Shown piece by piece: positions 38,215 to 55,470 of a DNA stretch of 56,815 nucleotides. Both the position numbers and the translations under genes were made by a program. Origin of the DNA: a virus (taxonomy: Duplodnaviria > Caudoviricetes); IMG/VR virus record IMGVR_UViG_3300009678_000009, positions 1 through 56,815 of that record. The stretch is one strand, 5' to 3'. The stretch's first letter is position 1. The number at the start of each line of letters is the position of its first letter. The notes beneath the pieces were generated by a model that had not been told where the DNA came from, made no database searches, and saw only the letters and a program-made list of their open reading frames with translations.

Positions 38215-38317
38215 ATATAATCTATATTAGTTGGTTAATCAATCTCTCTACACCACAAGCAAAGCCGACAACAGCTTGCTTAACCGCTTATTTGATTATT
38301 ACGCCTGCACAGACAAG

Positions 38318-38353
38318 CTACTATATCAGTATAGTGCTATACTGATATAGTAG
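38318..38353 (-). promoter_or_regulatory. 36-bp palindromic promoter element, copy A3 (centre TG instead of CA)
   Basis: CTACTATATCAGTATAG-TG-CTATACTGATATAGTAG. Confidence 0.8.
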
Positions 38354-38368
38354 TCAAGTGATTTTTTA

Positions 38369-38929: not shown

Positions 38930-38944
38930 AAATAATCTATACGC

Positions 38945-39310: not shown

Positions 39311-39346
39311 AAATAATCTATCTTATTTGGTTAATACAATTTACTC

Positions 39347-39649: not shown

Positions 39650-39661
39650 AAAATCTCTATA

Positions 39662-39928
39662 TTACTTAACAAATTCAGTTACGCAAATCTTGCAAAACTC
39701 TGTGTCAAGCCTTGCCGCCGTGGCGGCTGAGCATATGTCCATACACCTTTTAAGACGTTGCTTTCTATGCTGCAATTCTGCGCTTTCCACGCTTAGCGGA
39801 CACTCAAAGTGCCTTGTGTGCAGTAGCGTTAAGCAACAAACGGCACTTGTCAGGGACAAGATTGCTATCGCTGTGTAAGTCCAAAAACCGATTTTCATAT
39901 ACTTTTGACATACGTACATATTTGCCAT
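39662..39928 (-). CDS. Membrane-anchored Cys-rich protein (paralog of 36510..36824)
   Basis: Near-identical N-terminal DNA and protein sequence. Confidence 0.65.
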   Translation of the reverse strand: MANMYVCQKYMKIGFWTYTAIAILSLTSAVCCLTLLHTRHFECPLSVESAELQHRKQRLKRCMDICSAATAARLDTEFCKICVTEFVK

Positions 39929-39948
39929 AAAATCTCTATCTTATTTGG

Positions 39949-39984
39949 TTAAAAAATTGCATACACCTTGCGAGCAAATATCAT
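39949..39984 (-). pseudogene. 11-codon mini-cassette (MIFARKVYAIF) between two linkers
   Basis: 24/27 nt match to the 3' part of gene 28857..29393 (28876-28902), read in another frame. Confidence 0.45.
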
Positions 39985-39991
39985 AAATAAT

Positions 39992-40336
39992 CTATCTTAT
40001 TTGGTTAAAATGTTCCACGTGGAACATTCGGTGAAAGTCCTCGCTGCGTTGGTTCGCTTCTAAGAACCGTTGATACTCCGCGTCTCTGCACTTTTGGTAC
40101 AAAGCCACCACATCTTTATCATACCCTACGTTGCGTTTGCGTAATACATCTATAACCTCAACCACTGTGGTCGTGCCAAACATCAGACGTTGACCGTTAA
40201 TTTCGCAGTAAGCCTCGCTGGTGCAGAAGCACAGGTCGGCTCTTTCACCATCCCTTGTGAAATCTACCAGCATTATTAAATCTTTGCCATCTACACGTGG
40301 ATAGCTATCTAGTATCTTTATTTTTGTCTTTTTCAT
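39992..40336 (-). CDS. Hypothetical protein; 3' end contains a parS site
   Basis: Ends MFHVEH-FNQIR*, i.e. parS followed by the linker. Confidence 0.6.
   Translation of the reverse strand: MKKTKIKILDSYPRVDGKDLIMLVDFTRDGERADLCFCTSEAYCEINGQRLMFGTTTVVEVIDVLRKRNVGYDKDVVALYQKCRDAEYQRFLEANQRSEDFHRMFHVEHFNQIR
40011..40026. promoter_or_regulatory. parS: parS (ParB-binding centromere) site
   Basis: TGTTCCACGTGGAACA perfect palindrome; fits the bacterial chromosomal parS consensus. Confidence 0.8.
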
Positions 40337-40356
40337 AAAATCACTATCTTATTTGG

Positions 40357-40986
40357 TTAATACATTCTTGCCATTTGTGCATCCCTCCACAGTGTGTCGC
40401 TTTCTATTACTGCACGGTTGAAAGCGCCTTTTCTGTTCTTGCCATTTGGTACTCGCACCCATTCCATACACAAATCCGATATCGCCGCGTTCCGCTCAAT
40501 CATAAACCACAGAACTTGCCTTTTCAATCTTGCACGCCCAGAGTTGTAGACTCTAGATAGCAAAGGCGCAATAAGCTCTGGTCTCTCCTCCAGCACAATT
40601 CTTGCGCTTTCTTGTGATAGAAGCCAAGCTAAGTCATCATATACCCTATTCATAACTTCCATCACTGCGTCGTCTTTCGTAATACGCATAGTTAAAGCTT
40701 TCGTGCCATACCCTATACTCACCCTGCAATCGGCTTCGCTGGCTTCTGTGCCTTTGCAGTCTGCGTAAGCTTGCGGCTTAAACCCTTCCACTTTCATAAT
40801 AAGCAAAACCGCGTCAGCAAATCTGTGTTCAAGGTTTGGAATCTCCGCCGCCCTTGCTGGTCTTGCAGAGGCTAGCAATATCACACCTAATATCACTCCA
40901 GTGAAGCTAAAACCGCATGACTTGCGTAAAAATGCAAAGCCTACACCCAGCAACAACATTGCTGGCAAAATTAAAGAAAAAAACAT
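40357..40986 (-). CDS. Lysozyme (GH24/T4-like) with N-terminal hydrophobic/signal segments
   Basis: EGFKPQAYAD (E-x8-D), SIGYG, YNSG, C-terminal NRA.E; two hydrophobic helices then ARA|A. Confidence 0.75.
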   Translation of the reverse strand: MFFSLILPAMLLLGVGFAFLRKSCGFSFTGVILGVILLASARPARAAEIPNLEHRFADAVLLIMKVEGFKPQAYADCKGTEASEADCRVSIGYGTKALTMRITKDDAVMEVMNRVYDDLAWLLSQESARIVLEERPELIAPLLSRVYNSGRARLKRQVLWFMIERNAAISDLCMEWVRVPNGKNRKGAFNRAVIESDTLWRDAQMARMY

Positions 40987-41018
40987 AAATAATCTATCTT
41001 AAAAGTTAATCGTCAAAA

Positions 41019-41063
41019 GCTTACACAGCGTCCAAAGGGGTGCGTAATGGACGCTGTGTAAGC
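41019..41063 (-). terminator. Stem-loop with U tail upstream of lysozyme
   Basis: 16-bp perfect arms GCTTACACAGCGTCCA / TGGACGCTGTGTAAGC; TTTT follows on the minus strand. Confidence 0.65.
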
Positions 41064-41071
41064 GTTCAATG

Positions 41072-41269
41072 TTAAACGTCTGTTTCGTCGCAAAGAGAAA
41101 CAAGCTGTTCTTCAAGTATGCTCGCTTCGTATTTCAATAGCTTTATTTGGCTTTTGAAGGTTTTTATGTTAGGTCTTGGACTGCCGCTAAAATCCGACTC
41201 AGCCAAAAGACCACGCAATTTTTCTAAGGTTTGCTCAATCCTGTTAAGAAGTTTGGTATTTTCAATCAT
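41072..41269 (-). CDS. Small coiled-coil hypothetical protein
   Basis: 65 aa; TATTT-ATG start. Confidence 0.55.
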   Translation of the reverse strand: MIENTKLLNRIEQTLEKLRGLLAESDFSGSPRPNIKTFKSQIKLLKYEASILEEQLVSLCDETDV

Positions 41270-41303
41270 AAATAAATAGTAATCTAAATTGTTATCAACA
41301 AGT

Positions 41304-41357
41304 CTGCACAGACAAGCTACTATATCTATACTGACACAGTTATTCTATTAGTCAAAT
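41304..41357 (-). promoter_or_regulatory. Degenerate/chimeric promoter element (A-type left part, B-type -35 part)
   Basis: CTGCACAGACAAGCTACTATATC|TATACTGA (10-bp central deletion), then TCTATTAGTCAAAT. Confidence 0.55.
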
Positions 41358-41694
41358 GTTTTTTGTTTTTTCTAATTAATCTACGCCGCTCCTTGTCATT
41401 CATCTTTGCCAAGCGCCTGTTTTTTGCCTTGCGGTTGCGAATTGCTTTAGCTGGTAAAATATATACCCTTGAGCGTTTTTCGATTTCCTCCAAAGAAAAG
41501 CTATAACACTCTGTTAAATTACTTGTAGCAGGCGAAAAATGCGATAGCGAATCAGCGCTATCGTGGCTTGCAGAAAAAATCGCATCATATAAAGCGCCTT
41601 TGGTGCCAAGTAAAGTTGAGCAAGACCAGACGCGCTCTCTTCGTAAAATTTTACCGCTTTTTGCCGAAACCCTGTTAAAGTAAAAAATTGCCAT
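41326..41694 (-). CDS. Basic hypothetical protein
   Basis: 122 aa with K/R-rich C-terminus; linker start. Confidence 0.55.
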   Translation of the reverse strand: MAIFYFNRVSAKSGKILRRERVWSCSTLLGTKGALYDAIFSASHDSADSLSHFSPATSNLTECYSFSLEEIEKRSRVYILPAKAIRNRKAKNRRLAKMNDKERRRLIRKNKKHLTNRITVSV

Positions 41695-41718
41695 AAAATC
41701 TGCGTCTTATTTGGTTAA

Positions 41719-41745
41719 TAAGGGGCGCGTGGCACGCACCCCTTA
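41719..41745 (-). terminator. GC-rich hairpin in the leader after promoter A4
   Basis: Minus strand TAAGGGGTGCGT-GCC-ACGCGCCCCTTA with one U:G pair. Confidence 0.5.
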
Positions 41746-41788
41746 GCATTTTTTACATCCTTCTGGGCATCATTACTGCACAGACAAG

Positions 41789-41824
41789 CTACTATATCAG
41801 TATAGCACTATACTGATATAGTAG
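41789..41824 (-). promoter_or_regulatory. 36-bp palindromic promoter element, copy A4
   Basis: Identical to A1; flanks identical to A3 over about 75 bp. Confidence 0.8.
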
Positions 41825-41839
41825 TCAAGTGATTTTTTA

Positions 41840-43462
41840 TTAAAACGGACATTTTATTTTGTGTCCACGTAACAGCCTTTGGCAGTCGCACACAGACAAG
41901 CCGATGCTGTGTAGGTTGAGAGTTTTAAACACAGCACTATACCCTGCTTGCCATAATATCCTTGCTAATATTATTCTTGTTTGCTTTACATCTGTGTCTT
42001 TGAGTGCAACGGCAGCCTTACAAAGATCGCGGTATTTCATTGTGGCTTGAGTCTTGTTGTGCTGGTAATTTGCTACTGGACGCTTGCGATTAAAGACATA
42101 GTCAAATTTTTCAATCCACTTTACTGCGAAATTGAAGTATGTTGCTGTGATGCTATCGCGTTGTGCATCGCTTTTGCCAAGTAAGCCAAGCTCGCTGTAA
42201 GCATCGTTAATAGAAAAAGGTATGCGTGGCGCGCTGTTTTCTCGGTGTGCCAACCGTGCGGCTTGCTTGGGCATGGGTTGCTTGGTGCAGTCTTTTTTAA
42301 AAACTGCTTCTGCTTTTACTTGTATGTCCAGTGGTAGTAAAGATAGTTCGTGTGCAAGAAAGTCGATGCCAACTGTGTGTTTGGATCTGTGTAGAAAGGT
42401 AAAACCACCTTCTGCGTTAGGGTATTTAATAGCTACACAGTCGCTGTTGCTTAATTGCGCACGCAAACGGCGTTTTATTGCGTTTTGTTCTTTGGTAGCT
42501 ATGTAGCTTTCAAAAACTGTGCCATCGGCGTTGTAACGCTCTTGCAAGCCGACTACAGCGCCTTGGTCATAGGTGATTAGTTGCTTTAAACAATTCGCAC
42601 CGCCACCGATGGCGCGATCGTAGTAGTAGCGTGCGACGCCGTGTCTGTTTGAGTTTTCGCCGTAAGGCCCATAGGTATTGTCGCAACGCGAAGCGTCAAA
42701 GGGTATCTGCTGTTCAATGTCACCGTTTTCATAATAGCGCGTATGGACGCCGTCCTCTTTGCCATTTAACCAAAGCCCCTCCGCCTGCGTGTTGCCATCG
42801 CGTTCGTAATAGGTAGCGCACCTGCCGTTGAATTTGCCATCTTTGTAGTTTAATTCGCTGCGCGTGTTGCCGCCGTGTTCGTAAAATGCTATGGTGAGAC
42901 CGTCTTGGATGCGTGCTGCAATTGAGTTAGGGTGTCTAGCAGGAACGAATTTGTAGTTTTCAATACGGTCGGCTTGCCCATTGCTTTTGTAGAAGGTTTC
43001 AATTACTAGTTCTTGGTTTTGTTTGTATAGCACGCGGCGCAAAAGGCACGCTCCATCGTTTGAGTAGTCGCTACATATGCCATCGCGTAAACCGTTTACA
43101 TAGTAGTGGCGGCGGGTTAATGCACCTTCTGTGTTGTATTGTGTAGATACGCCGATGGGCTTTCCATTCGAGAATACACACTCGGATTGTGTCTCGCCGT
43201 TAGGATGGAAGGTTTTTACCAAGCCGTTTGCTAGACCTTTGTGTTTTGGCACAACGGAAGCAAGGTTGCCTTCGTCCTTGTAGAAAGTGTATTGTAAGCC
43301 TTCCTCCTCGCCATCGGCGTTGGTGAGGGTAATTTTGGCTGGCTTGCCATTCTTGTGAAAGGTTGTAAGGCTTTTGATCATACCGTTTGCGTGGTATGTG
43401 CTTACAGGCTCGGTAGACGGTCTCAGCCGTGGTTTGCGTCGTGCTGGTAGTGGATTTGCCAT
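41840..43462 (-). CDS. MORN-variant (YwqK antitoxin-like) repeat protein with unrelated C-terminal domain
   Basis: Many Y/F-H/Y-x-NG and YKDGKFNG-type units over about 320 aa. Confidence 0.8.
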   Translation of the reverse strand: MANPLPARRKPRLRPSTEPVSTYHANGMIKSLTTFHKNGKPAKITLTNADGEEEGLQYTFYKDEGNLASVVPKHKGLANGLVKTFHPNGETQSECVFSNGKPIGVSTQYNTEGALTRRHYYVNGLRDGICSDYSNDGACLLRRVLYKQNQELVIETFYKSNGQADRIENYKFVPARHPNSIAARIQDGLTIAFYEHGGNTRSELNYKDGKFNGRCATYYERDGNTQAEGLWLNGKEDGVHTRYYENGDIEQQIPFDASRCDNTYGPYGENSNRHGVARYYYDRAIGGGANCLKQLITYDQGAVVGLQERYNADGTVFESYIATKEQNAIKRRLRAQLSNSDCVAIKYPNAEGGFTFLHRSKHTVGIDFLAHELSLLPLDIQVKAEAVFKKDCTKQPMPKQAARLAHRENSAPRIPFSINDAYSELGLLGKSDAQRDSITATYFNFAVKWIEKFDYVFNRKRPVANYQHNKTQATMKYRDLCKAAVALKDTDVKQTRIILARILWQAGYSAVFKTLNLHSIGLSVCDCQRLLRGHKIKCPF

Positions 43463-43472
43463 AAAGAATGAA

Positions 43473-43541
43473 TATAAGTTGTTATATGTAGCTACAACAA
43501 TATAGTAGCTTGTTATTTCTATTAGTCAAATACTATTTTAA
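43473..43541 (-). promoter_or_regulatory. Repeated early-promoter element, copy B1
   Basis: 69-bp TATAAGTTGTTATATGTAGCTACAACAATATAGTAGCTTGTTATTTCTATTAGTCAAATACTATTTTAA; minus strand TTGACT-N16-TACTAT. Confidence 0.75.
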
Positions 43542-43579
43542 GATTTATTAATTTGTTTGGCTTCAACACCTGCACTGCA

Positions 43580-44016
43580 CCTGACCGTAATAACCTGACC
43601 ATAATAAATTGTAGAAAAGTGTAGTGTTTCTCTACTCTTTTGCAAGGTATTGACCACAAGCTGACCACAATCAGACCGTAATAAGACCGTAATAAATTGA
43701 AGAAAAGCTAGGGTTTCTCTACAGTGACCGTAAAGACCATAATAAAGTTCAAGTCATTATGTGTATGTGTGTGCGTGTGCGTGTATGTATGTGTGTGTGC
43801 GTGTATGTGTGTGTGCGTACGTATAGTATATATATATTATTATGGTCTTTACGGTCACCGTAGAGAAACACTGAACTTTCTGCCAATTTATTACGGTCTT
43901 ATTACGGTCTGATTGTGGTCACTGGGCGATTGTGGTCAGCGTAGAAGGGGGTAGAAAAAGCGGAAAAAGAGGGCAAAAGAGTAGAGAAACACTAGCTTTT
44001 CTACTCTTTTGCAAGG
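43580..44016. other. Putative replication origin: iterons in an ~84-bp inverted repeat around an alternating purine-pyrimidine tract
   Basis: Arms 43662-43745 and 43837-43921; GACC(G/A)(T/C)AA iterons; non-coding; near the switch between the two gene arms. Confidence 0.6.
43758..43837. repeat. (GT/AT/GC)n alternating microsatellite
   Basis: 68 bp of perfect RY alternation (43758-43825) followed by (TA)n. Confidence 0.95.
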
Positions 44017-44104
44017 GTGTTGTCGCCGTTAAGCCCTCGAGAAGGAGGCGAGGTGGTTGGCTTCTATGTAAGTGAAGATTAGGTAGGTAAGTAAAGATAA
44101 GAAA

Positions 44105-44120
44105 TGATCCACGTGGAACT
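44105..44120. promoter_or_regulatory. parS: Degenerate parS site
   Basis: TGATCCACGTGGAACT, 14/16 match to the perfect copies. Confidence 0.5.
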
Positions 44121-44517
44121 AACCAAGCTTGCTTTCAACAACTTGTGCCGAATAGTAGTTCCCTCTGTATCTTTGTTCTATTGCGTGTGCTGCTTTGCAT
44201 TTAAGCTCAAGGGCGTTAGCGTCTACAGCTTGTTGCAAGTGGGCGATTGAGAAGCAAGCGTACTTTTCTGCAAGGCGTGTAAGTGCGCAACGGTCAACCT
44301 CTGTGTAAAGATTTGGATTTTTGTTGAAAGTAGCAAGTGTAGTAAGGCTTCCGTCAGCCTTGGTAAAGAACACCTCGTCTTCATTCCTCAGGCAAACCTC
44401 AATTTCTAGTAAGTTTGCAGACCAAAGGCTTTTGTCAACAAAGCCAAAGCGGTGTGTTCTTGTGTCAAGTAAGTCGTCAAGAAAATCACAAACAGTTTTC
44501 TTGTAGCTTTCGCGCAT
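44119..44517 (-). CDS. Hypothetical protein
   Basis: 132 aa downstream of B2; the conserved ATG at 44527 is out of frame. Confidence 0.55.
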   Translation of the reverse strand: MRESYKKTVCDFLDDLLDTRTHRFGFVDKSLWSANLLEIEVCLRNEDEVFFTKADGSLTTLATFNKNPNLYTEVDRCALTRLAEKYACFSIAHLQQAVDANALELKCKAAHAIEQRYRGNYYSAQVVESKLG

Positions 44518-44537
44518 AGTTTGCCATAAAAAATGAA

Positions 44538-44606
44538 TATAAGTTGTTATATGTAGCTACAACAATATAGTAGCTTGTTATTTCTATTAGTCAAATACTA
44601 TTTTAA
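44538..44606 (-). promoter_or_regulatory. Repeated early-promoter element, copy B2
   Basis: Identical to B1. Confidence 0.75.
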
Positions 44607-44609
44607 TAT

Positions 44610-44810
44610 TTATTTCTGTAGAAGCTTTTTGCACCCGCCGTCTAAGACCCACTCTAAGTTGTCTATAGTCACACTGTTTATACACTGCTCGTACGCGTGT
44701 TTGCGCACTTGTTCGTGTTTTGCATCTATAACGTGAAAGGCAATAGTAACAGGATAAAAAAGTACTAGCATCAACTCGAATGTGAAATATTTTGTAAAAT
44801 TCTTAATCAT
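44610..44810 (-). CDS. Small membrane protein
   Basis: N-terminal TM segment, two Cys; first gene of the minus arm. Confidence 0.55.
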   Translation of the reverse strand: MIKNFTKYFTFELMLVLFYPVTIAFHVIDAKHEQVRKHAYEQCINSVTIDNLEWVLDGGCKKLLQK

Positions 44811-44819
44811 ATAAAATTG

Positions 44820-44897
44820 TATAAGTTGTTATATGTAGCTACAACAGCTACAACAATATAGTAGCTTGTTATTTCTATTAGTCAAATACTATTTTAA
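44820..44897 (-). promoter_or_regulatory. Repeated early-promoter element, copy B3 (9-bp internal duplication GCTACAACA)
   Basis: Otherwise identical to B1/B2. Confidence 0.75.
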
Positions 44898-44918
44898 GAT
44901 TTATGCATTTAACGCTTG

Positions 44919-44934
44919 TGTTCCACGTGGAACA
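44919..44934. promoter_or_regulatory. parS: parS site
   Basis: TGTTCCACGTGGAACA, intergenic between the divergent arms. Confidence 0.8.
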
Positions 44935-45004
44935 TTGTATGCACTGCACCTGCACTACTACTGCACTGCACACAAAAAACATATGATTTATTTTATAAAA
45001 TCAC

Positions 45005-45032
45005 TTGACTCTTATGTGAACTGTTGCATACT
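45005..45032 (+). promoter_or_regulatory. Rightward sigma70-like promoter
   Basis: AAAATCAC-TTGACT-N16-CATACT; same upstream context as the A elements. Confidence 0.5.
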
Positions 45033-45318
45033 CGTGAGTAGCAATTGAGCTTGCCCATCTGTGCGTGTCCCCATTCAGTTGAATTTTTGTGGTATCCCAT
45101 TGACTTATTCTTGAAAGGAGAAGTGGTTTATATATTTTCGGAAAATATAATTTATCTATTGTTAGTATAGGACTTATATTGAAAGAGGGGGGTGTCTCAA
45201 ATTCAGCTTATATGCACTTTAAATCTCCCTCTGCCTCTTTCTCCATCAATAAACACTTGACTATTATTAATAACGTTGTTATGTAGACAAAGTTATTAAT
45301 AATTAAGATTTATACACA

Positions 45319-46743
45319 ATGTCCGACATTCCTAAAGAACTTACACCGTTCAGTGATTTGTTTTCTTTTGTAGAAAAACGAAACCTAGCAGTCCAGCTAG
45401 GTTTTAGAGTTCACAAAATGGTTTACTACAGCAACATCAACCAAGAAGAAACACAAAAAATGATTGGGCAGTTCCCAAGAAGAAAAGAGAACAATATGAC
45501 GATTGATGTTACAGAAAGCAATAAATTAATCTTATCTGCTCTTGCACAACGCGATAAAACTATGCTTGCAGGAAGAAAACAGATTCTTAATCAAATAATA
45601 GATAACACTTTTAACAAAGCAATAGAATGCTCAAAAAATACTGCGTTTGACGCTCTAGAACACGGAAAAGATTTCCATACACAAATAGAAAAAATCTACA
45701 CCACGGAATTTAAACCTAACGGATGCTCTACAATTATTACTGTTGCCTTAGAAGCTTTCGATAAAGATATAGATGAGCAATTAAGCTCGTATTATGCAAA
45801 TCAAGATGTATGCACAAACTTGTCTTGCGCAACAGAACTTATGGCTCTATCAAAAAATATTATAACATTAATCAATGTCTACTTGGAATTAGAAAAAGAG
45901 ACTTGGCTTGATAAAATTATGCATACATTTTACAGCGACTTGCCAAACTTGCTTTCTTTTCATAATTGCGATAACTTACTACCACAAGATAATGCTCGTT
46001 GTTACGATGAATATAAAGCCGTAGAGGAGTGCTTCGCAAATATACAGGGCGAGGATTTCATCCTTTCTAAGCAAACCACAAAGTCAGGTATTGGATACGC
46101 TAGCTACCCTGACAAACGCAAAGATGGTATTGTTACTGAAGATACAATGAAGTACAGTAGTGGCTTAACAGTATTTAGGACAAAGCCTACTGAGTTCCAC
46201 GAATTATTTGACCAAGAACCTGTTACTTTGCCTTCTCTGCTATATGACCCGCGTCTTAATGCAGAAGTGCCAAAACACTTACTTACTGACAAAGGAACAA
46301 TAAACGTTACAGGGCAGGTCTTCTTTGACCGCAAGCAGGAAGAAAAATTGCGTAAGGCAACTTACACCGAGGCTACTGGCGGTGCAAAGAACGCGATGTT
46401 TATTACATTGCTGTTGCCATTTAAATACCACGCCCCTTCTGCTGACACTGACGGTAAGATTGATTTAGTGTTGCCACATAAAAACAGCCTCGAATTTAAC
46501 GTACTGTATAAAAATCTACAAAACTTACTGCTAGGTTTAGCTACTTCAAAATCTGGCAAAACGATTAGTGGGGTTACTTATTTTTGTAATTGGGGCGATG
46601 CCGATGGCGTACTCGCTAATGGAAAGTTGGACTTTGCATTAAATCCTTCTAACGATTATAGTTATGCTTCAATTGAGATTGAATGCAGCCACGATATCCC
46701 TTTACAGGATGCGGTTGAAGGATTTATAGCAGCTTTCGAGTGA
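45319..46743 (+). CDS. Hypothetical protein (first gene of the + arm)
   Basis: 474 aa ORF, no recognised motif. Confidence 0.7.
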   Translation: MSDIPKELTPFSDLFSFVEKRNLAVQLGFRVHKMVYYSNINQEETQKMIGQFPRRKENNMTIDVTESNKLILSALAQRDKTMLAGRKQILNQIIDNTFNKAIECSKNTAFDALEHGKDFHTQIEKIYTTEFKPNGCSTIITVALEAFDKDIDEQLSSYYANQDVCTNLSCATELMALSKNIITLINVYLELEKETWLDKIMHTFYSDLPNLLSFHNCDNLLPQDNARCYDEYKAVEECFANIQGEDFILSKQTTKSGIGYASYPDKRKDGIVTEDTMKYSSGLTVFRTKPTEFHELFDQEPVTLPSLLYDPRLNAEVPKHLLTDKGTINVTGQVFFDRKQEEKLRKATYTEATGGAKNAMFITLLLPFKYHAPSADTDGKIDLVLPHKNSLEFNVLYKNLQNLLLGLATSKSGKTISGVTYFCNWGDADGVLANGKLDFALNPSNDYSYASIEIECSHDIPLQDAVEGFIAAFE

Positions 46744-47246
46744 CGAAAAAAAAATCTTTCACTAAGAAGGACAAAGCGTTGCCAGTCCTTCTTAGTGAAA
46801 ATATTATTGAAGCTTCTAATGATTTACAAAACCAAATTAATCTACTTTTTGGTAGCTTGCAAATCGAGCGCGCACAGTTTTTTGCAACAGCTGTTGAAGT
46901 TGGTGTGCTAATACCAGCAAGTAATGGTGGCTTAGAATGGAATCTGCGCTGGGCTTTGCAAAACAAAATCAAACCTTGGATAGACCAGTATATTTCTCTA
47001 ATGGAGAGAAGCAAAGACAGCCAACGCTTGGGGTTACAGCTGGTTGGTTATGATAAGATGCTTAGACCGCTCTATCCGCAAAAATCCGCTATTGACGTTG
47101 ACACAAGACCATTAGATAGCCTTGTCGGACAAATGAACAATGAAGCTAAGCAACTTGGCGTTAAAACCACGGAGATGCAGAAAACTTTAGACGAAATACG
47201 GCAGGAGTTAGTTAATAAAGTTTTGAAAGAAAATGAGAGTCAGTAA
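46740..47246 (+). CDS. Probable terminase small subunit
   Basis: 168 aa, overlaps the large-subunit start; positional inference. Confidence 0.45.
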   Translation: MTKKKSFTKKDKALPVLLSENIIEASNDLQNQINLLFGSLQIERAQFFATAVEVGVLIPASNGGLEWNLRWALQNKIKPWIDQYISLMERSKDSQRLGLQLVGYDKMLRPLYPQKSAIDVDTRPLDSLVGQMNNEAKQLGVKTTEMQKTLDEIRQELVNKVLKENESQ

Positions 47247-49170
47247 AAAGACATTTGCTGTACGCCCTTTAGACGGCGAAATGCGCAAGTGGACAGGGGT
47301 TTTTGATATAGCACGCCACAAAGAGGCAATGGCGGAATATCTCGATCTCGATGTTCAAAGCACAGAATATTTACTTTATATGCTAAATGAAGATGAATTA
47401 TTTAGCAGAGAAAGCTTCCCAGCTGTTTGCCATCTTCTGTACGACATTCAACAAAAAGATGGTGGCGGTATGGATTATTTTGTAATGCACCCTCACCAAA
47501 GAGCCGTATGTGATGAAATAATAAAACAATTTAAAAAAACAGGGAATACCCACATAGTACTTCCAAAAGGTCGGCAGACTGGTGCTTCAACACTATGCGC
47601 TATTCTTGAATGTCATATTGGCTTGCATACAAAAGTTCGTAATGGCGAAAGAAGCGGTTTACGAAATTGTGGTACTGTAGTGCATATCGATAAAGCAAGA
47701 GAGATATTATTGAAGTGTAAAAAGAAGTGCTATAGCCTTCGCCTTCTGCGATTACTCTACACAAGAGATACAGGAATGATATGCGAAGAGCCTTATGCTC
47801 GGTTGCACGATTGGCTCTTTGCACCAGCAAAAAGGCAATATATGGTTTCTACTATCTATGGACACAATATGGAAACTAGTGTACACAGTGACAGAGAAGG
47901 AAAAATGCAACCTTTTGTCAGTTCCCAGCTACACTCATTGCATTGCTCGGAGGCTTATGCTTACTCAAAGTATAATATGGCAAAGATGCTTAGTACGCTT
48001 TCAGGTCAAAGCGATAAGTATGTAGTAGTTGAAAGTTCACTTGATGGTAGGAGGGGCTGTATTTACGAATTGATGGATGAATGTGGTTTTATTGATTATG
48101 AAGCAGCAAACAAAGGTGCGAGCTTTTATCAGTCAAGAACTCACGCATATATGTTTATCTTCCTTAAGTGGATTGATGATGTATCTGCGAGGTCGTCAAC
48201 AGAGTCGATCCCAGATGAATGGGAGCCATATCCGCACATTTTAGAACATCTTGAAGCGAATAACATACCGCCAGAGTCGCTTGACCGAGAGCAATTGCAC
48301 TGGATTAACGACAAGGTCGGCAGAGGCACTGAGCTACAACAAAGGCAACTATGGGGTGAGTATCCTTGCTGCCTTGACGATGCTGTGGCATCTGCAGAAG
48401 CATCAACTTTCTTTCAAGAAGAGGCTTGTCGTAAAGCTTTAAAGCGCGCGCCTTTAGATATTGCAATGCTTGCCTCGCGCTACAACAAAATGCCAAGTCT
48501 TGTTATGGGTATTGACCTTGGTTATACTACAGACAAAATTGCTATCGCTTGTTTGTGTGGTTTTTACGATGAAGACGAGGAGCTTGTTAGTGGTAATGTA
48601 TTTCACCTAGAGACTCTGCGACACTCAAGAGCGGTGGGAAGGGAGTACTACCAAATTATTTTTAATCGTGTAGTTGAATTAAGTAAACAATGCAGGCTTA
48701 AACCTGCTGTTGTTAATGTTGACTTATCGGAGGCAGGGGGGAGTGTTAATGTTGGACATTTTCACGAATTGGCAAAGGAATATAAGTATTTTATTGACAC
48801 TGAACAAGTATCACTTGAGGATGTGTTTGTTCAAGCAACATTTGGAAGAAGCAGTAATGAAAAGATGGATGCGAATGATTACACCAATCACCGCGGCAGA
48901 ATGTACAGCCTTTTGAGAAAATCAATTGACGCTGGCTCAATTAAGTTGCCAGATGACACTAACCTTGAAGCAGAGCTTACTTCTATTCTTGCAACCGAGA
49001 AGAGTGGAAAGTTTACTCTGGAAGAGAAAGCAGCACTGAAGAAACGCTTACGCCATTCGCCTGACCGAATGGACGCCTGTGCATTACTTTACTATTCGCT
49101 TCCTTTCGGTTTAAAGAAACAGTTTGACTTTTTTACAGTTGAAGGCGAATGGTTAAAGAGCATAGCATAA
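47233..49170 (+). CDS. terL: Terminase large subunit
   Basis: MHPHQ, KGRQTGAST (Walker A), LHCSE (Walker B), VESS, MGIDLG (nuclease), KKRLRHSPDRMDA. Confidence 0.9.
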   Translation: MRVSKKTFAVRPLDGEMRKWTGVFDIARHKEAMAEYLDLDVQSTEYLLYMLNEDELFSRESFPAVCHLLYDIQQKDGGGMDYFVMHPHQRAVCDEIIKQFKKTGNTHIVLPKGRQTGASTLCAILECHIGLHTKVRNGERSGLRNCGTVVHIDKAREILLKCKKKCYSLRLLRLLYTRDTGMICEEPYARLHDWLFAPAKRQYMVSTIYGHNMETSVHSDREGKMQPFVSSQLHSLHCSEAYAYSKYNMAKMLSTLSGQSDKYVVVESSLDGRRGCIYELMDECGFIDYEAANKGASFYQSRTHAYMFIFLKWIDDVSARSSTESIPDEWEPYPHILEHLEANNIPPESLDREQLHWINDKVGRGTELQQRQLWGEYPCCLDDAVASAEASTFFQEEACRKALKRAPLDIAMLASRYNKMPSLVMGIDLGYTTDKIAIACLCGFYDEDEELVSGNVFHLETLRHSRAVGREYYQIIFNRVVELSKQCRLKPAVVNVDLSEAGGSVNVGHFHELAKEYKYFIDTEQVSLEDVFVQATFGRSSNEKMDANDYTNHRGRMYSLLRKSIDAGSIKLPDDTNLEAELTSILATEKSGKFTLEEKAALKKRLRHSPDRMDACALLYYSLPFGLKKQFDFFTVEGEWLKSIA

Positions 49171-49182
49171 AAATATTATAGT

Positions 49183-51048
49183 ATGAATATTAAAGATTTA
49201 ACCGAAAAGGAGAGCGAGGAGCTAGCACGCAAAATCCGTGCATCAGAGATGCGTCTTAGATCTGATTGGATAATTCACGTCTCCTCAAGCGCTGGCGGTA
49301 GTAAACTTTTACAGGTTGTGCCATATATTTACGACCGTTACGATTTATTGGCAATGCAAATCGGGCCATATGTGTTAGGTGGTGTATACACTAATATTAG
49401 CTCTGGCACAATCCGCCAAAATGATAAGCAGTACAGGACAAGCGGATTACTTTCGCCTTTGATTAAAAACATTGTCGTTAAAGCGATTAATGACCTCGCC
49501 ACAGCAGAGATTAAAGTTTTGCCGCCAATACCAGAAAAGTTCAACGATGCACAGAAAAAAGAGTATAGTGCGTTTTTTGACAAAATCAGTCTATACGCCA
49601 GTGGTATGCTTGTTGGCGGACTACTTGATATTTCATCAGGATCTTTGCAGGATATGCTAGAATCTTTACTATGCTTTGGTATAACAGGATACAATGTTAC
49701 TTTACGCGATTACGCAGCGAAGCCAGTTGTAAAGTTTGTTCCGCCCGGCTCAATCTTTGCTGAGTTGGATAACCAAACTAGAGAATACACTAGGTATTTT
49801 TACAAGCAAGTCCATACCTTGCACGAGTTTAATACTTGGTTTGTGACGAGAGATAAGGAAGGAAAAGAGGTTGATGTCAAAACACAAATACCAAAAGTAG
49901 AGGAGCTAGATAGAGGCGTGACAGTTATTTACTGCTTAACTCGTGTAATTAAAGACAATATTATCACATGGGAGCAGACCGCCGTAGTTGATAATGGAAC
50001 ATACCCAATTACAAACGTCACTGATGGCAACGGCGTCAATGTCGCTCTTAGCGTTGAAGAATTAAAGTATTCAAAGTCTCTTTGTGGCGTGTTGGAGTTT
50101 AGAGACAAAGATAGGGAGGTTTTGTCGTATCCGCCGTTTGGCTTGATAGCTATTAATACTAGAGATACCGATTCGTATGGCTATCCACCCTTAGCCGCAG
50201 TACTACATCGCCTTTCTGCTTTAAACAAATTAGAAGCAACTCTTAATGGGGCGGTTGAAAAGATGCTACAACCTGACTTGGCAGTGGATAAAGGGTTGGC
50301 AAATAATACTAGCAACCAGCTTAACGCAAGACTGGCAGATCCTTACGCAGCTGCGTCTAGGGTTTTTAAATACGATGCTGCGGCTGGCGTTATACCTGTA
50401 CAACAAATACTCCTAACAACACCAATAGAAAACGTCCTGCAAGTGGAAAAGGAGCTTTTGCTTTGGTTTCAAGACTTTTTTGGCAGCGTTGGAGAGGGCT
50501 ATCTTGAACAGCCTGTTGATAGAATGACTGCACAAGAGCTTAGTTCACGGCAACAAGCCGCTGGGATTGGCTTAAAAGCTTACACCGAAGAAGCAGTCAC
50601 AAAAATAAGAAAGTTGCTAGCGAATATTATCGTACCGTTAGTTTCAACTCTTGTCTATTCTACTTTTGAGGGGGAGTTAGATAAAGATGTTAAAAAAAGC
50701 ATTGAAGAGTTGTTTGTTGATGGTGAACTTGATACTAGCCTTGTCGGTATTGTATGCACGCCTAATACATCTGCGACACAAAGGCAAATGGAGCTCGAGT
50801 CTTTAATGGCTTTAACAAACTATGCAATGCAAGTTGGACAAGTTAGTGTGGAGGCGGCCATGGGCATTAATTACTTTAAGCTTCAAGAAAGATTTGCAGA
50901 ATTACATAACATCGCAGAGTTTGTTAAGCCAATCGAGGAAGTCCAAAGAGATATAAAAAAAGCAGAGAAGCTGAAGAAAGAAGAGCAAGAGCAACAAATG
51001 GCACAGCAACAGGCGCAACAGGCTGGAGGACAACAGCAACAACAATAA
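49183..51048 (+). CDS. Portal / head-tail connector (T7 gp8-like family)
   Basis: YGYPP..L..LN.L....L.P, RMTAQE motif, Q-rich tail; follows terL. Confidence 0.85.
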   Translation: MNIKDLTEKESEELARKIRASEMRLRSDWIIHVSSSAGGSKLLQVVPYIYDRYDLLAMQIGPYVLGGVYTNISSGTIRQNDKQYRTSGLLSPLIKNIVVKAINDLATAEIKVLPPIPEKFNDAQKKEYSAFFDKISLYASGMLVGGLLDISSGSLQDMLESLLCFGITGYNVTLRDYAAKPVVKFVPPGSIFAELDNQTREYTRYFYKQVHTLHEFNTWFVTRDKEGKEVDVKTQIPKVEELDRGVTVIYCLTRVIKDNIITWEQTAVVDNGTYPITNVTDGNGVNVALSVEELKYSKSLCGVLEFRDKDREVLSYPPFGLIAINTRDTDSYGYPPLAAVLHRLSALNKLEATLNGAVEKMLQPDLAVDKGLANNTSNQLNARLADPYAAASRVFKYDAAAGVIPVQQILLTTPIENVLQVEKELLLWFQDFFGSVGEGYLEQPVDRMTAQELSSRQQAAGIGLKAYTEEAVTKIRKLLANIIVPLVSTLVYSTFEGELDKDVKKSIEELFVDGELDTSLVGIVCTPNTSATQRQMELESLMALTNYAMQVGQVSVEAAMGINYFKLQERFAELHNIAEFVKPIEEVQRDIKKAEKLKKEEQEQQMAQQQAQQAGGQQQQQ

Positions 51049-51114
51049 TGCTTTTTTTTAATTTTTTTATCTTTATAGTGCTGGATGTGTGTTATATAAT
51101 AACAAAAATTTTTT

Positions 51115-53211
51115 ATGATCCCTGAAACAAGCGTTGGCGGCTCCTTACCTCCTTTTAATGAATTTCCGTATAAGGTTGAAAGCACTGCAACGTATGCTGA
51201 GAAGATGGAAGCTGAGGCTAAAAATTCCAGATGGCAGGCTGATAAAGTGATTTACAATCCTGATGCAGTTTATAAAAGTGCATTCGGAGTTGAAAACTCT
51301 GCTTCACCACGGTTTGCATTGGATGCGAAAAACGCGCCACCAATGACTGGTGGAAGTGATTATAAGTTTCCAGCCACAAATGACGGCTCACCGTATAGAG
51401 TAAACCAGCTTGGCAACGCTTCTATATTGCAAGGTGGTTACTCTTATGTTGGCTTTATAATGAATGTGTTGCCTTGGGGCGGCCCTTCCTTGTCGCCAAT
51501 GGAATCTACAATGGACGCGAACTTGTTAGATCCGTTCAATGTTAATAAGTATGTCAAGCCAGTTATGATGCTTGGCGGTCAGCGTGGGATTGCGTTTGGC
51601 TTACCAAGTACAACAGGTATGCCTCCAGTAGGTAGAATACCTGACTTTGTTTATGTGGAGACAAATGTTGTATCAGCTATAATTGAATCAACGGCAATCG
51701 AACCTGACTCTAATATGATGCGCGCAGGTTATGGCATAAGCCCAATATTCGTTGCTTTGAAAGACCAACAATATCACAGAACGCAAGCCGAGTTGCCACT
51801 TTGGATGTCAGCTATTAGTGGATTGTACCGCATTGATGATAGAAAAACCGATGGAGAGCTTATTGCAAGAATGGGCGGAACATATACAGATATGTTCTTT
51901 GGTCAACCAAATGAGCCAATTTATATTTCTCAGGCAGGCGGTGCAAAATTTTATCCTTCTATCGGCGCGGCTAACGATGCAAATGCCCTTGGTACAGCAT
52001 CATCGGTCTTGACACATAGAACATATTTACTCGCTGTTAAGCAGCAGCAAGAGCAGCAAGCAACAATAGTTTTTAGTGCTGGGGCTGCTATGAGCGGAGA
52101 CAGGGTTATGGTTATTCCTGCTTCACAATTTTTTGAATTACAAAGAGACCCAGTTTTCTTGTATAAAGACACTGGTATTGCACCAACAAGTGCAGGCGTT
52201 GGTCAACAGCCAATTCCAGTGTCTTTTGGACAAGGCGGAATGTTGCCACAGCTTGGTGGCGGCCCAATGTATTACAAGTCAGATCCTTTTTGGGGCAGTG
52301 GCGGTGTGTACTTCTTGGTATTGCCAGATGTGCATTTCGCACAAGCTGGCTGGATTCTTCCAAAGCAAGGCTCGTCGACTGGCGAAATTTGTATGAACAT
52401 CAAGATGTTTAGCACAGCCGTATTTGAGCTTGAAGCTACTAATATGTTTGGCGAACACGATGGAAGGAGAAAAGTGTTTGAAAATAAGAGGACTGACAAT
52501 AATGCCTTCCCAATTTTTACAGAAGTTGAAAGGAGTAAGTATCATTCTACAGTTCAAGTTACGCCTGTTCCAAATGGTAGTTTTGGAACATTGCCAGGTA
52601 GTATCTTAACTTATATTAACTTTGCAATTTCAAAGAAAACTGACCTTGGTATTATTAATATTGAAGTTCTCGCTTCTGATAGCTATAACAACCAAGAATT
52701 TGTTAAGTGGATAACCTTAGGTAATGTGACTACTGGAAGTCCAACATCTGGGGCTTATAACGTTGTCTCGACTACAGATTTACAGCAACAAGCTATGGCA
52801 GCTGGAAGAAATGCGTTGACAACGCTTGGATCTGATCCTGCAACTAAGCATATGCAAAGAGAGTTCCACACAATGTTTGGCTCTAATATGAAAGAGCAGG
52901 CTGATATGGTTAAAGGCAGAAACTGGAATCGTGAAGCACGCAAGAGTGGAAATTACGGCGAAGTTGTTGTACATCGCAACAGTATGGAAGCTGTTGAGGA
53001 GGTCAACAAGAAGGCTCACTCTAACGCAGAGGCAAGCGTTGACGCACAGCTAGGAGCTATCGAGGCAGAGAAGCAAAACAAAGAAAATGTCGAGCGTTCT
53101 GCAATTAGGGCAAACATTGCACTTGAAGACGCAGCGAAAGCGTTGAAAAAGAACAATGAGGGTACTACTGATGCACAACCTGCTAGTGCGGCACAACCTA
53201 AAAATAAATAA
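51115..53211 (+). CDS. Probable major capsid protein with C-terminal extension
   Basis: DRVMVIPASQFFELQRDPVF resembles the A-domain motif of podoviral capsids; follows portal; 698 aa is unusually long. Confidence 0.55.
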   Translation: MIPETSVGGSLPPFNEFPYKVESTATYAEKMEAEAKNSRWQADKVIYNPDAVYKSAFGVENSASPRFALDAKNAPPMTGGSDYKFPATNDGSPYRVNQLGNASILQGGYSYVGFIMNVLPWGGPSLSPMESTMDANLLDPFNVNKYVKPVMMLGGQRGIAFGLPSTTGMPPVGRIPDFVYVETNVVSAIIESTAIEPDSNMMRAGYGISPIFVALKDQQYHRTQAELPLWMSAISGLYRIDDRKTDGELIARMGGTYTDMFFGQPNEPIYISQAGGAKFYPSIGAANDANALGTASSVLTHRTYLLAVKQQQEQQATIVFSAGAAMSGDRVMVIPASQFFELQRDPVFLYKDTGIAPTSAGVGQQPIPVSFGQGGMLPQLGGGPMYYKSDPFWGSGGVYFLVLPDVHFAQAGWILPKQGSSTGEICMNIKMFSTAVFELEATNMFGEHDGRRKVFENKRTDNNAFPIFTEVERSKYHSTVQVTPVPNGSFGTLPGSILTYINFAISKKTDLGIINIEVLASDSYNNQEFVKWITLGNVTTGSPTSGAYNVVSTTDLQQQAMAAGRNALTTLGSDPATKHMQREFHTMFGSNMKEQADMVKGRNWNREARKSGNYGEVVVHRNSMEAVEEVNKKAHSNAEASVDAQLGAIEAEKQNKENVERSAIRANIALEDAAKALKKNNEGTTDAQPASAAQPKNK

Positions 53212-53241
53212 TTGATTGTTAATTTTAAGTTAAAGTTATAT

Positions 53242-53958
53242 ATGGCTGGAGAAGGAACTGTTTTACCTACAGTTAGAAAAGGTATGAAGTCTCTTGAGCG
53301 CAGAAATGTGCTTGAGACCAAGATCGATGGTGGCTTTGCATTGACGCTTGCGGCAGGAACGGAGTATGGTAATCCATCTTTGCAACCAATTCTACCATTG
53401 CCAGCTGGCGATGCTTTGCTTTTGTGTGGCTTGGCTGGGGCAGGCGTTGCGGATGCGACTTTTTCGTATTACTCGCAATTTTCTTCTTTCAACGCAAGTA
53501 TTACTGATTTCACTGGCGCGCCAGCAATTGGTTTGGCTATAGTTGATATGGTGTTTGACGGAAACACAGCAGGCTATCCTACAGATGCAGACATTGAATT
53601 TAAAAGTTTGGATACAGTACTTGGCTTTTCTGGAAGGGCATTAAAAATTCATTTCACTGATGCTCTTACAGATACTGCCACAGCCGCACCTTCAATTGTA
53701 ACTATTCTACCCAACTCGCCAACAGCTTGCTGGGGCTTTGAAGACATTTTATATGAGATGGCACAATCAGGTATTAGCTTCGATCCTAGGTCACAACAAT
53801 TGGTTATGGCTCTTGTCAATACAAGTGCAACAAATCCAATGACTTTTTCTCGTTTGGTTGTCAATGCAGTGCCAACAACTAAAAAGATGAAACCGATCAG
53901 GCAAAGTGATAAACCAGCATCTTTTAACCAAAAAGCAGTTAATGGAATTTACTACTAA
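53242..53958 (+). CDS. Virion structural protein (decoration/cement candidate)
   Basis: A/G/T-rich, beta-type composition, follows capsid; ATG 53242. Confidence 0.5.
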   Translation: MAGEGTVLPTVRKGMKSLERRNVLETKIDGGFALTLAAGTEYGNPSLQPILPLPAGDALLLCGLAGAGVADATFSYYSQFSSFNASITDFTGAPAIGLAIVDMVFDGNTAGYPTDADIEFKSLDTVLGFSGRALKIHFTDALTDTATAAPSIVTILPNSPTACWGFEDILYEMAQSGISFDPRSQQLVMALVNTSATNPMTFSRLVVNAVPTTKKMKPIRQSDKPASFNQKAVNGIYY

Positions 53959-53966
53959 AATTACTT

Positions 53967-54644
53967 GTGGCAAAAACTATAACTGTAAGAGAGGCGATTG
54001 ACAATGCGTTCTTTCGCCTTTCTTACACTGAAGACGATGCAAAAACTGGCGGCTTTGACAATGCGAGGCAATTAATTCTAAGAACACTTACTGTTAATGC
54101 GATGAGCAGTGATGGCTGTTTATTCTTTTCGTATTTTGATAATCTTAGCGCGGTTGGCGCTCTTAGTGACACTGCCCCAATAAGCATATATACTGGTCAG
54201 GCATTTAATATATTCCCTTACCCTGCTGGAGCTGTGTACATTGAGGGCATTGTCAATAAGCTAGCCTATAATAGTATGCCACCCACTGGTCGCACTGCTG
54301 GAGAAGACCTTGACAACGCATACATAAGACAGGCATTCTTTTCTTTGGAAGAAAATTCTTTATACGTTGATAGTAGCGTTGGTGAAGTTTTGACCGTACG
54401 TTATATTAAGGACGTGACTGAGGATACTCTGATTACCTTGCCTTTCTGGTCTTATGTTAATTCAATTGCAGGCGAGATAATTTGCAGGGTTGTGAATAAT
54501 GATAAGCGTGCCGCAGAGATGCACGATGAATACAGAAACTCGTTTGAGCAACTTAGGGACTTGACGCAGACGGAGAAAACCAAACTTGTTCCACGTGGAA
54601 CAAATCTAATAAAATTTACGCCAGTTCCAACTGTATATACTTAA
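53967..54644 (+). CDS. Tail tubular protein A / adaptor (T7 gp11-like)
   Basis: AIDNAFFRL N-terminal helix; LTVRYIKDV...PF...A.EI...N...A..M..EY pattern. Confidence 0.65.
   Translation: MAKTITVREAIDNAFFRLSYTEDDAKTGGFDNARQLILRTLTVNAMSSDGCLFFSYFDNLSAVGALSDTAPISIYTGQAFNIFPYPAGAVYIEGIVNKLAYNSMPPTGRTAGEDLDNAYIRQAFFSLEENSLYVDSSVGEVLTVRYIKDVTEDTLITLPFWSYVNSIAGEIICRVVNNDKRAAEMHDEYRNSFEQLRDLTQTEKTKLVPRGTNLIKFTPVPTVYT
54587..54602. promoter_or_regulatory. parS: parS site inside the adaptor gene
   Basis: TGTTCCACGTGGAACA (within codons for LVPRGT). Confidence 0.75.
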
Positions 54645-54710
54645 CAAATGTTTTTGACTTGACTTTTTAGATAATGTAGTTAAGTTGCTTGCAATAAGCA
54701 CTAACCCTTG

Positions 54711-54738
54711 TAAGAAGGGCGATTTTTCGCCCTTCTTA
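54711..54738 (+). terminator. Perfect 12-bp hairpin (terminator or leader structure)
   Basis: TAAGAAGGGCGA-TTTT-TCGCCCTTCTTA; no clear U tail. Confidence 0.5.
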
Positions 54739-54768
54739 TGAGCTAATAGATAATTTAAACTATATTGT

Positions 54769-55470
54769 ATGAACCAAGAATTTGACGATGATGTAGTTAC
54801 TACTGGCACAGACCCATCACAAACTACATCTGCGACTGATGTAGTTACTACTGGTGCAGACCCATCACAAACCACATCATCCGCTGATGACGGAAAGGAC
54901 GTTTTTACAGAATTAAGAGAGAAGCAAAAGAAAGAGCAAGACCTAACAGCCATCGCAACGGCAAAGAACCGCATACTTTCTTTTGCGCAGTATCTTGATA
55001 ATGATGCTATCGATAAGATTAACTTAGCAACAAGCAAGCTTTACGATGTTAAAAGTGCCGCAGGTTTGGCTTACGCCTCTGCATTATTTGAAGCAGCTGT
55101 TGAACAAAAGAAAAGTGATGATTTAGCAAAACAAGCTTTAGCAAAAGCGAGCCAAGTTGCGCCTAGCAATTACCAAGCAGCCGCCCAGCCTTTATCCGAT
55201 AAAGCACCAACAAACGTTGGCGACAAGGGTGTCGGCATTTCTGCATTAACTACAACAGAGCAGGAGATGGTTGCGTTGCATAAAAAGGCTGTGGAGGTTG
55301 ACAGAAAGACTGCCATTGCTCGCAACGCTGGAGACCAAAGACTTGTTGCTACATTGTTGCAAGTAAAGTTTAATTGCGATGTTGAAATGAGTAAGTTGCA
55401 AAAAAAGTTTAATAAAGAACAAGAGTTGCAACGTGATGCTATGCTTGATGAGTTTAGGAGACAAATATAG
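54769..55470 (+). CDS. Scaffolding-like helical protein
   Basis: Acidic low-complexity N-terminus with a 16-aa duplication DVVTTG(T/A)DPSQTTS, then helical; function inferred. Confidence 0.45.
   Translation: MNQEFDDDVVTTGTDPSQTTSATDVVTTGADPSQTTSSADDGKDVFTELREKQKKEQDLTAIATAKNRILSFAQYLDNDAIDKINLATSKLYDVKSAAGLAYASALFEAAVEQKKSDDLAKQALAKASQVAPSNYQAAAQPLSDKAPTNVGDKGVGISALTTTEQEMVALHKKAVEVDRKTAIARNAGDQRLVATLLQVKFNCDVEMSKLQKKFNKEQELQRDAMLDEFRRQI

Follow-up and report, generated by a model that had tools for sequence, protein, structure and literature searches.

Candidate orphan host-type parS sites in a complete 57-kb phage genome without a recognizable ParB

We analyzed IMG/VR virus record IMGVR_UViG_3300009678_000009, the whole of which (56,815 nucleotides [nt]; hereafter, the window) carries direct terminal repeats and has a CheckV completeness of 100%. 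The genome contains four copies of a 16-nt palindrome, three exact and one degenerate, that match bacterial chromosomal parS, the site bound by ParB. These are orphan parS sites, in that no cognate parB or parAB was detected on the same replicon. We propose that the four palindromes load the chromosomal ParB of the host, with positioning or segregation of the phage genome as the likeliest consequence, and we put the probability of this reading, which is drawn from sequence comparison, at about one half.

The exact palindrome, TGTTCCACGTGGAACA, forms sites A, C, and D, and the near copy TGATCCACGTGGAACT, with two mismatches (14/16), forms site B (Table 1); all four were found where the original prediction had placed them. 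In 100 dinucleotide-preserving shuffles of the genome the mean number of matches was 0.02, and none of the shuffles reached the observed four. The 16-mer is the only palindrome of 12–20 nt that occurs more than once in the genome, and four of the six CACGTG hexamers present belong to the parS-type sites, the other two lying elsewhere. When compared with the consensus TGTTNCACGTGNAACA, three sites fit exactly and one fits with two mismatches; no further site within two mismatches exists in the genome, where the next best candidates (5610 and 19323) have three. By simple arithmetic, a random 16-nt palindrome matches the 14 fixed positions of TGTTNCACGTGNAACA with a probability of 4^-7, or ~6e-5.

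The identity of the palindrome was then assessed against published sites. TGTTCCACGTGGAACA is, letter for letter, parS2/parS3 of Pseudomonas aeruginosa, which are validated sites (PMC4368675, Table 1), and, as the original prediction had claimed, it agrees with the chromosomal parS consensus; the agreement covers all 14 fixed positions. It also conforms to the consensus by which parS sites are located in genomes, TGTTTCACGTGAAACA with two mismatches (PMC10197239). The same 16-mer appears in the text of nine papers, among them work on ParB/parS in Pseudomonas, Burkholderiales, and Bdellovibrio, and it fits a parS consensus common to many phyla. These matches strongly suggest that the palindrome is a chromosomal parS-type site, and its binder is probably host ParB.

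The surroundings of the sites were compared. Flanking sequence is not shared among sites A, C, and D, and what these copies have in common is 16 nt, which is the length of the ParB footprint, plus one or two extra palindromic bases at A and D. Because the flanks are unrelated and just 16 nt are kept, selection appears to have acted on the site itself, rather than a larger segment having been duplicated. Two copies are embedded in coding 3′ ends in unlike frames, again in agreement with the original prediction: a minus-strand open reading frame (ORF), 39992-40336 (...MFHVEHFNQIR*), has site A within its last 12 codons, and ORF 53967-54644 (...KLVPRGTNLIKF...) has site D within its last 20. That A and D do not share a codon phase argues for conservation of the DNA rather than of a peptide. 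Site B is located ~110 nt to the right of the inverted repeat of an ori-like block, and its G-TCCAC core is intact in both half-sites. Site C lies 33 nt upstream of the -35 element of a leftward promoter (44885-44858) and 70 nt upstream of that of a rightward promoter (45005-45032). All four sites fall in non-coding DNA or in the last 60 nt of an ORF (p ~3e-4), a class that makes up 13% of all 16-mer positions and whose 60-nt cut was chosen post hoc. Beyond the 16-mer, then, the copies have no similarity, and they occupy positions of minimal coding constraint.

Table 1. Coordinates of the parS-type sites, repeats, and genes in the window, with surveyed records that carry two exact copies of the 16-mer.
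Feature	Position	Strand	Remarks
Site A, exact	40011-40026		Widened to a 20-nt palindrome, 40009-40028
Site B, degenerate	44105-44120		Overlaps the TAG stop of ORF 44119-44517 (minus strand)
Site C, exact, intergenic	44919-44934		Between divergent sigma70-like promoters
Site D, exact	54587-54602		Widened to an 18-nt palindrome
ORF with site A	39992-40336	-	114 amino acids (aa); no family match; 3′ end holds site A
ORF with site D	53967-54644	+	225 aa; structural module; weak PHROG tail-protein match (E 0.005); 3′ end holds site D
Putative origin	43579-43994		11-nt iterons GACCGTAATAA / GACCACAATCA on both arms of a ~400-nt imperfect inverted repeat
Short repeats, TGCAC(TGCACC)	44940-44971		Directly right of site C
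95-nt repeat, three copies	43455-43549, 44520-44614, 44811-44905	-	Each with a TTGACT-N16-TACTAT sigma70-like leftward promoter
Gene-leader motif, ~26 nt, TTAACCAAATAAGATAGAnnnTTT-ATG	28857-41721	-	~19 copies
36-nt perfect palindrome, four copies, CTACTATATCAGTATAG(C/T)(A/G)CTATACTGATATAGTAG	32187-32222, 37410-37445, 38318-38353, 41789-41824		
TerL candidate	47233-49170	+	phrog_2, E 6e-6
Portal	49183-51048	+	Weak Pfam Head-tail_con; phrog_332, E 2e-11
Tail protein	1551-5057	+	
Giant ORF, 2083 aa	12724-18975	+	No match in Pfam or PHROGs
Giant ORF, 1202 aa	5119-8727	+	No match in Pfam or PHROGs
Dam-type N6-A DNA methyltransferase	27567-28529	-	
Second N6-type DNA methyltransferase	33296-34366	-	phrog_18657, E 1e-51
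C5-cytosine DNA methyltransferase	35259-36263	-	Pfam, E 2e-71
Other minus-block genes		-	MORN_2-repeat protein, lysozyme, PD-(D/E)XK exonuclease, VRR-NUC nuclease, SF2 helicase, 924-aa primase-helicase
HEAT-repeat protein	37486-38214		Six tandem 84-nt (28-aa) repeats at 37544-38215
'Peptidase HslV family' PHROG match	30895-31458		E 1e-12; amid small middle genes
G066 (L224, L225)	C1:41085, 70873		84 kb, 21% G+C, CheckV completeness 12%; 50% G+C palindromes in AT-rich intergenic DNA
G083 (L221, L222)	C1:27707, 40578		
G093 (L223)	C1:22148, 22650		

A phage-encoded partner for these sites was looked for in several ways. A six-frame scan for ParB_N at E <= 10 gave no match in the genome, and ParA, ParB, integrase, recombinase, repressor, and helix-turn-helix (HTH) families were absent from the matches to Pfam (60 ORFs) and PHROGs (50 ORFs). 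As far as these searches reach, the statement in the original prediction that no ParA, ParB, or integrase is recognizable holds; this negative result for integrase and ParB nevertheless carries little weight, because ~47 of the 62 ORFs match no family. AlphaFold2 (AF2) models were examined for two small early proteins encoded beside sites B and C. One of them had a mean predicted local distance difference test (pLDDT) score of 48.8 and was unusable; the other was modeled as one long helix, hydrophobic at the N-terminus, with no sign of a DNA-binding fold. A sequence search of the Protein Data Bank (PDB) with a 474-aa early protein gave no match. Separately, a LexA-type reading of the palindrome was rejected, since its half-sites are spaced by N6, compared with N4 in the LexA-type motifs GAAC-N4-GTTC and TGTTC-N4-GAACA.

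ParB binding and every later step are inferred, and the following course is proposed. In an infected cell, the three perfect sites would be loaded with dimers of host ParB, site B less strongly so, and the dimers would slide outward as cytidine triphosphate (CTP) clamps to cover the region of the ori-like block and the early promoters. This would mark the phage DNA as origin-proximal 'self' DNA and recruit SMC to it, and the host ParABS/SMC system would position and segregate the phage genome, driven by ParA, in a non-productive, carrier-type, or delayed infection, yielding a heritable carrier state. Damping of the adjacent divergent early promoters may be an added effect. Segregation, SMC recruitment, and promoter damping would accord with established properties of chromosomal ParABS and are not mutually exclusive. 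Among the conceivable consequences of ParB loading, we rank positioning and segregation first, because this is the demonstrated function in the sole known precedent, phage phi29 (PMC2731898), and because the dispersed sites A and D, far from promoters, suit a centromere better than an operator. Promoter damping is a serious second, and titration of ParB a weaker third.

We surveyed other viral records for the same arrangement, using 31 parS-bearing IMG/VR records of at least 30 kb, which were picked among 80 of the at least 120 stretches that contain the exact 16-mer. Two or more exact copies are held by 4 of the 31 records (G066, G074, G083, and G093), whereas a center-swapped control palindrome occurs in two or more exact copies in 0 of 21 records. 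ParB_N is encoded in only one of the 31. In G066, G083, and G093, which were checked, the flanks of the two exact copies are unrelated and no ParB_N was found; G083 and G093 are both complete genomes with terminal repeats, one of 47 kb and the other of 81 kb, and the two copies of G074 are close to opposite ends of its record. The phage in the window carries the most copies among the records examined (three exact and one near). The flanks of the first 120 loci formed at least 91 independent clusters, as compared with 44 of 62 for the control. These results suggest that host parS in phages without ParB is a pattern that recurs. A wider proposal is that ParB-less phages of many lineages have repeatedly and independently acquired orphan host-type parS as a device by which virulent-looking phages persist as positioned, segregating episomes in non-sporulating, slow-growing hosts, for instance in groundwater and sediment; it is offered tentatively and is more doubtful than the reading of the four sites themselves. 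The persistence of integrase-less phages in slow-growing natural populations, whether as carrier state or pseudolysogeny, is poorly understood, and multi-copy parS without ParB suggests itself as a simple genome-wide screen for how common such a device is. As a side observation, a ~1.2 Mb 'Bacilli bacterium' genome (G005:C8:32441-32899, via L130) has seven exact copies of TGTTTCACGTGAAACA in tandem at ~63-nt spacing, an unusually dense array.

Relatives of the phage proved scarce. Neither megablast of 39000-47000 nor tblastn of the primase, portal, and lysozyme gave a match in 50,697 phage records, and there was accordingly no similarity to phi29 for that DNA or those proteins in the set; the SF2 helicase matches 1290 of these records at <60% identity, in phages of many hosts, and is thus uninformative about kinship. 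A search of viral contigs with the TerL candidate revealed no related locus, and a word-index protein search with TerL and the lysozyme returned their own clusters alone. The 18-nt form of the leader motif (see below) was found in four viral contigs, with one match each (L004, L005, L006, and L007). Positions 4485-6148 of L005 (IMGVR_UViG_3300007539_006866, 10 kb) encode an SF2 helicase with 23% identity to that of the window (E 2e-16), with an adjacent VRR-NUC at 33%; L005 may therefore be a very distant relative, and no parS-like site is present in its 10 kb.

Signals pointing to the host were mixed. A Shine-Dalgarno-like motif stands upstream of just 1 of the 62 ORFs, which argues against a Bacillus-like host. 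The Atlas neighbors of the MORN_2 protein and the lysozyme are most commonly from Bacteroidota (scores 0.79 and 0.89). The early promoters are sigma70-like (TTGACT-N16/18-TAnnnT), which is not known as the promoter type of Bacteroidota and was counted against such a host. Genome contigs that encode relatives of the C5-methyltransferase belong to many different phyla and have no synteny.

Groundwater, freshwater sediment, and soil metagenomes contain DNA that closely matches 39000-47000, being nearly identical to it, in 23 runs from 23 studies; 9 of the runs contain at least half of the sampled words, two may be where the DNA of the window came from, and no RNA run was among the 23. In contigs of other organisms from the same metagenomes, the 16-mer occurs in close tandem, 12-24 nt apart, which shows no more than that this parS variant is used in those communities. 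Population variants of the phage were compared over 39000-55000 using contigs from four runs, in three of which cover of the sites was patchy. None of the 40 variant places examined, out of 76 in total, lies inside a site. In runs X9 and X11, a 473-nt deletion (44153-44625) has taken out one promoter repeat together with the greater part of ORF 44119-44517, and site B is retained in these variants. The same two runs have a 12-nt insertion behind 44775. Joints between the 95-nt promoter repeats (43546/44914 and 44845/43490) were also seen and may be recombinants or assembly effects.

Several of these results weigh against the proposal that the sites are host-type parS serving in segregation. 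Nothing detected in the genome independently marks a carrier or episomal state, since the searches revealed neither an integrase nor a repressor nor a plasmid-type control of replication, and the ~47 unmatched ORFs leave room for a cryptic phage-encoded binder. The exact 16-mer, present in the at least 120 IMG/VR stretches mentioned above, compares with 3 for the reversed palindrome and 66 for the center-swapped palindrome, and enrichment is not established. The original prediction had three sites within 4 kb of a putative origin; the distances are right, the origin is itself putative, and clustering of three of the four sites within 4.9 kb around it is not significant in simulation (p = 0.08). 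With regard to conservation among relatives, a HMMER search with the portal against 1.84 billion representative proteins recovered the protein itself and one relative (P0003) at 27% identity, and the contig of P0003 was not found in viral or metagenome contigs, the metagenome search having been run partly with low-complexity patterns. The population variants are ~0.5% divergent, with the 76 variant places spread over 16 kb, which gives no power for 64 nt. Finally, host leads are weak and tend toward Bacteroidota (Atlas scores <0.9, the single Shine-Dalgarno motif, and the MORN_2 domain).

The rival that survives best holds that the palindrome is the operator of an unrecognized dimeric DNA-binding protein of the phage, either an early/middle regulator or a cryptic ParB/KorB-like protein, with the identity to parS being coincidental or convergent. 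The location of site C between divergent early promoters is consistent with this, as is the contact of site A with a conserved copy of the gene-leader motif (39982-40009); the unmatched ORFs could hide such a protein, and scanning very many windows can yield a chance match at the 6e-5 level. However, all 14 fixed consensus positions match and the sequence is identical to validated parS, no ParB_N or HTH family was found, and the models of the early proteins beside B and C offer no DNA-binding fold, one being unusable and the other a long helix. The regulatory repeats that the phage does possess are of another kind: the gene leader, the 36-nt palindrome, and the 95-nt repeat each have long flanks in common, unlike the four isolated 16-mers. 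Moreover, the leader precedes most of the small minus-strand genes, and the palindrome is found at just one of its ~19 copies. We therefore consider a phage-encoded binder unlikely, although it is the foremost of the alternatives.

A second rival accepts host ParB as the binder and places the selected role in transcription, such that B and C would silence the early promoters in a KorB-like or P1-ParB-like manner and tie lysis to the cell-cycle or growth state of the host. The spacing of site C from the two divergent -35 elements suits this role, site B closes the same cassette region, and raised ParB in P. aeruginosa lowers expression near parS1-4 (PMC5521831). On the other hand, silencing by chromosomal ParB is limited according to the same text, in which a Bacillus subtilis spo0J null showed no significant expression changes, and A and D are far from recognizable sigma70-like early promoters. 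As the primary function, transcriptional control appears rather improbable, more so than a phage-encoded binder.

It is very unlikely that the sites serve to titrate host ParB off the chromosome as the phage replicates, thereby disturbing host segregation and division. Three perfect sites multiplied by the phage copy number would indeed exceed the 0-7 chromosomal sites per genome examined; nevertheless, a slow segregation defect would be of little gain to a lytic phage, and titration leaves the placement at gene ends and near the ori-like region unexplained.

The remaining two rivals can be dealt with briefly. That the palindromes act as RNA hairpins, either terminators or processing sites, at gene ends is highly improbable, even though three of the four sites are at ORF 3′ ends and a T-run follows site A on the coding strand: the hairpins, calculated for 46-nt windows, are weak (-8.9 to -12.2 kcal/mol, z -0.3 to -2.3), site B forms none (-3 kcal/mol, z +1.0), the T-run is confined to site A, and no Rfam match was obtained. 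The phage has strong 36-nt hairpin elements of its own, and a proper terminator-like hairpin (54705-54740), ~110 nt past site D, closes a structural operon. The intrinsic terminator reading was rejected because of the weak hairpins, the unfolded degenerate copy, and the U-run at a single copy; a terminator scan likewise omits the sites. Least probable, to the point of being negligible, is that the sites are functionless passenger or chance sequence, such as scraps of host DNA, given three exact copies with unrelated flanks where 0.02 matches were expected.

The region between the early genes contains further elements (Table 1). The core of the ori-like block is (TG/CG)n at 43760-43815, and the block is a probable replication origin by its architecture. 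DnaA boxes were of no help in this respect, as 20 one-mismatch matches are spread over the genome and none are clustered at the block. Contigs of public runs break at 43753-43826, inside the block. A string similar to the short repeats right of site C, CACCTGCACTGCACC, is found at the left edge of the block (~43566-43582). The 95-nt promoter repeats precede ORFs 41840-43462 (the MORN_2 protein), 44119-44517, and 44610-44810, which they are predicted to drive. At least 18 minus-strand ORFs, as well as an 11-codon mini-ORF (39984 downwards), have the gene-leader motif immediately in front of their ATG. The motif overlaps the stop codon of the upstream gene in a varying frame and looks like a phage-specific promoter or a leaderless-mRNA/translation signal. 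Each 36-nt palindrome includes a promoter-like site on the minus strand, TTGACT-N18-TATACT, and has an A-rich tract upstream; these elements are probably regulated middle promoters or promoter-terminator units.

The genome itself is closed by a 123-nt terminal repeat (1-123 = 56693-56815), and one ORF spans the join of the genome ends, giving a product of 608 aa. Structural genes form a plus-strand block that runs from 45.3 kb through the ends to 19 kb; the stretch between 44.8 kb and 19 kb is taken up by a block of genes on the minus strand. The two giant ORFs may encode ejected or virion-associated proteins; the C-terminal part of the 2083-aa ORF contains G/S-rich 33-nt repeats (18835-18972). 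The presence of three DNA methyltransferases in one phage suggests a heavy investment in anti-restriction. Searches of the genome for tRNAs and for Rfam families both returned zero.

Similarities to known partition systems are instructive with respect to the proposed use of host ParB. The chromosomal parS of P. aeruginosa shares the same 16-mer and occurs in several copies near a replication origin, as the sites of the phage may; here, by contrast, the replicon is a phage, no cognate parAB operon was found on it, and the origin is putative. The phage-plasmids P1 (ParAB-parS) and N15 (SopAB) encode their own ParA and ParB and have their own site sequences, and the centromere sites of N15 are dispersed, with some near promoters. 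The phage analyzed here resembles them in having centromere-type sites on a phage genome and differs from them in that no ParA/SopA or ParB/SopB was detected. KorB of plasmid RK2 is a plasmid-encoded ParB-family protein that acts at dispersed palindromic OB sites, some of which lie upstream of promoters; the multiple dispersed palindromes are alike, whereas the operator sequence differs and no KorB-type gene was found in the window. In its logic the arrangement is also similar to that of SGI1, a mobile element reported to stabilize itself with the parABS of another replicon, that of an IncC plasmid, which it hijacks; the term 'parS-like' is used there as well (PMC10954446). SGI1, however, is an integrative island with a helper plasmid as the ParAB donor, whereas in the present case the element is a phage and the host chromosome is the presumed donor.

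The precedent among phages is phi29, which the original prediction rightly invoked: it has five parS sites, and Spo0J helps to move its genome into the prespore (PMC2731898). As described there, phi29 and Nf are phages without their own ParB that have several copies of a host-type centromere bound by host Spo0J, and the phage in the window is alike in having several host-type sites and no recognizable ParB; it also looks lytic, as no integrase was found, and three of its copies are perfect and identical. Unlike phi29, it has a 57-kb genome with a T7-type portal signal and a primase-helicase, no protein-primed polymerase was found, and Spo0A boxes (TGTCGAA, both strands) number zero, compared with ~7 expected for a random 7-mer (arithmetic). 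The lack of Spo0A boxes and of Bacillus-type host signs, together with the groundwater and sediment source, makes spore entrapment unlikely as the purpose of the sites. In the literature searched, phi29 in sporulating Bacillus was the only worked-out case of a phage that borrows a host centromere system, and most other papers found on phages and parS appear to concern other uses of ParB/parS. No natural phage beyond the phi29 group was found described with a host chromosomal parS in the main texts covered by the search. The borrowing of parS is thus already known, and what would be new is a phi29-like strategy in a phage unrelated to phi29; perfect, triplicated host parS in such an uncultivated groundwater and sediment phage suggests that this strategy is wider than phi29 and is not tied to spores.

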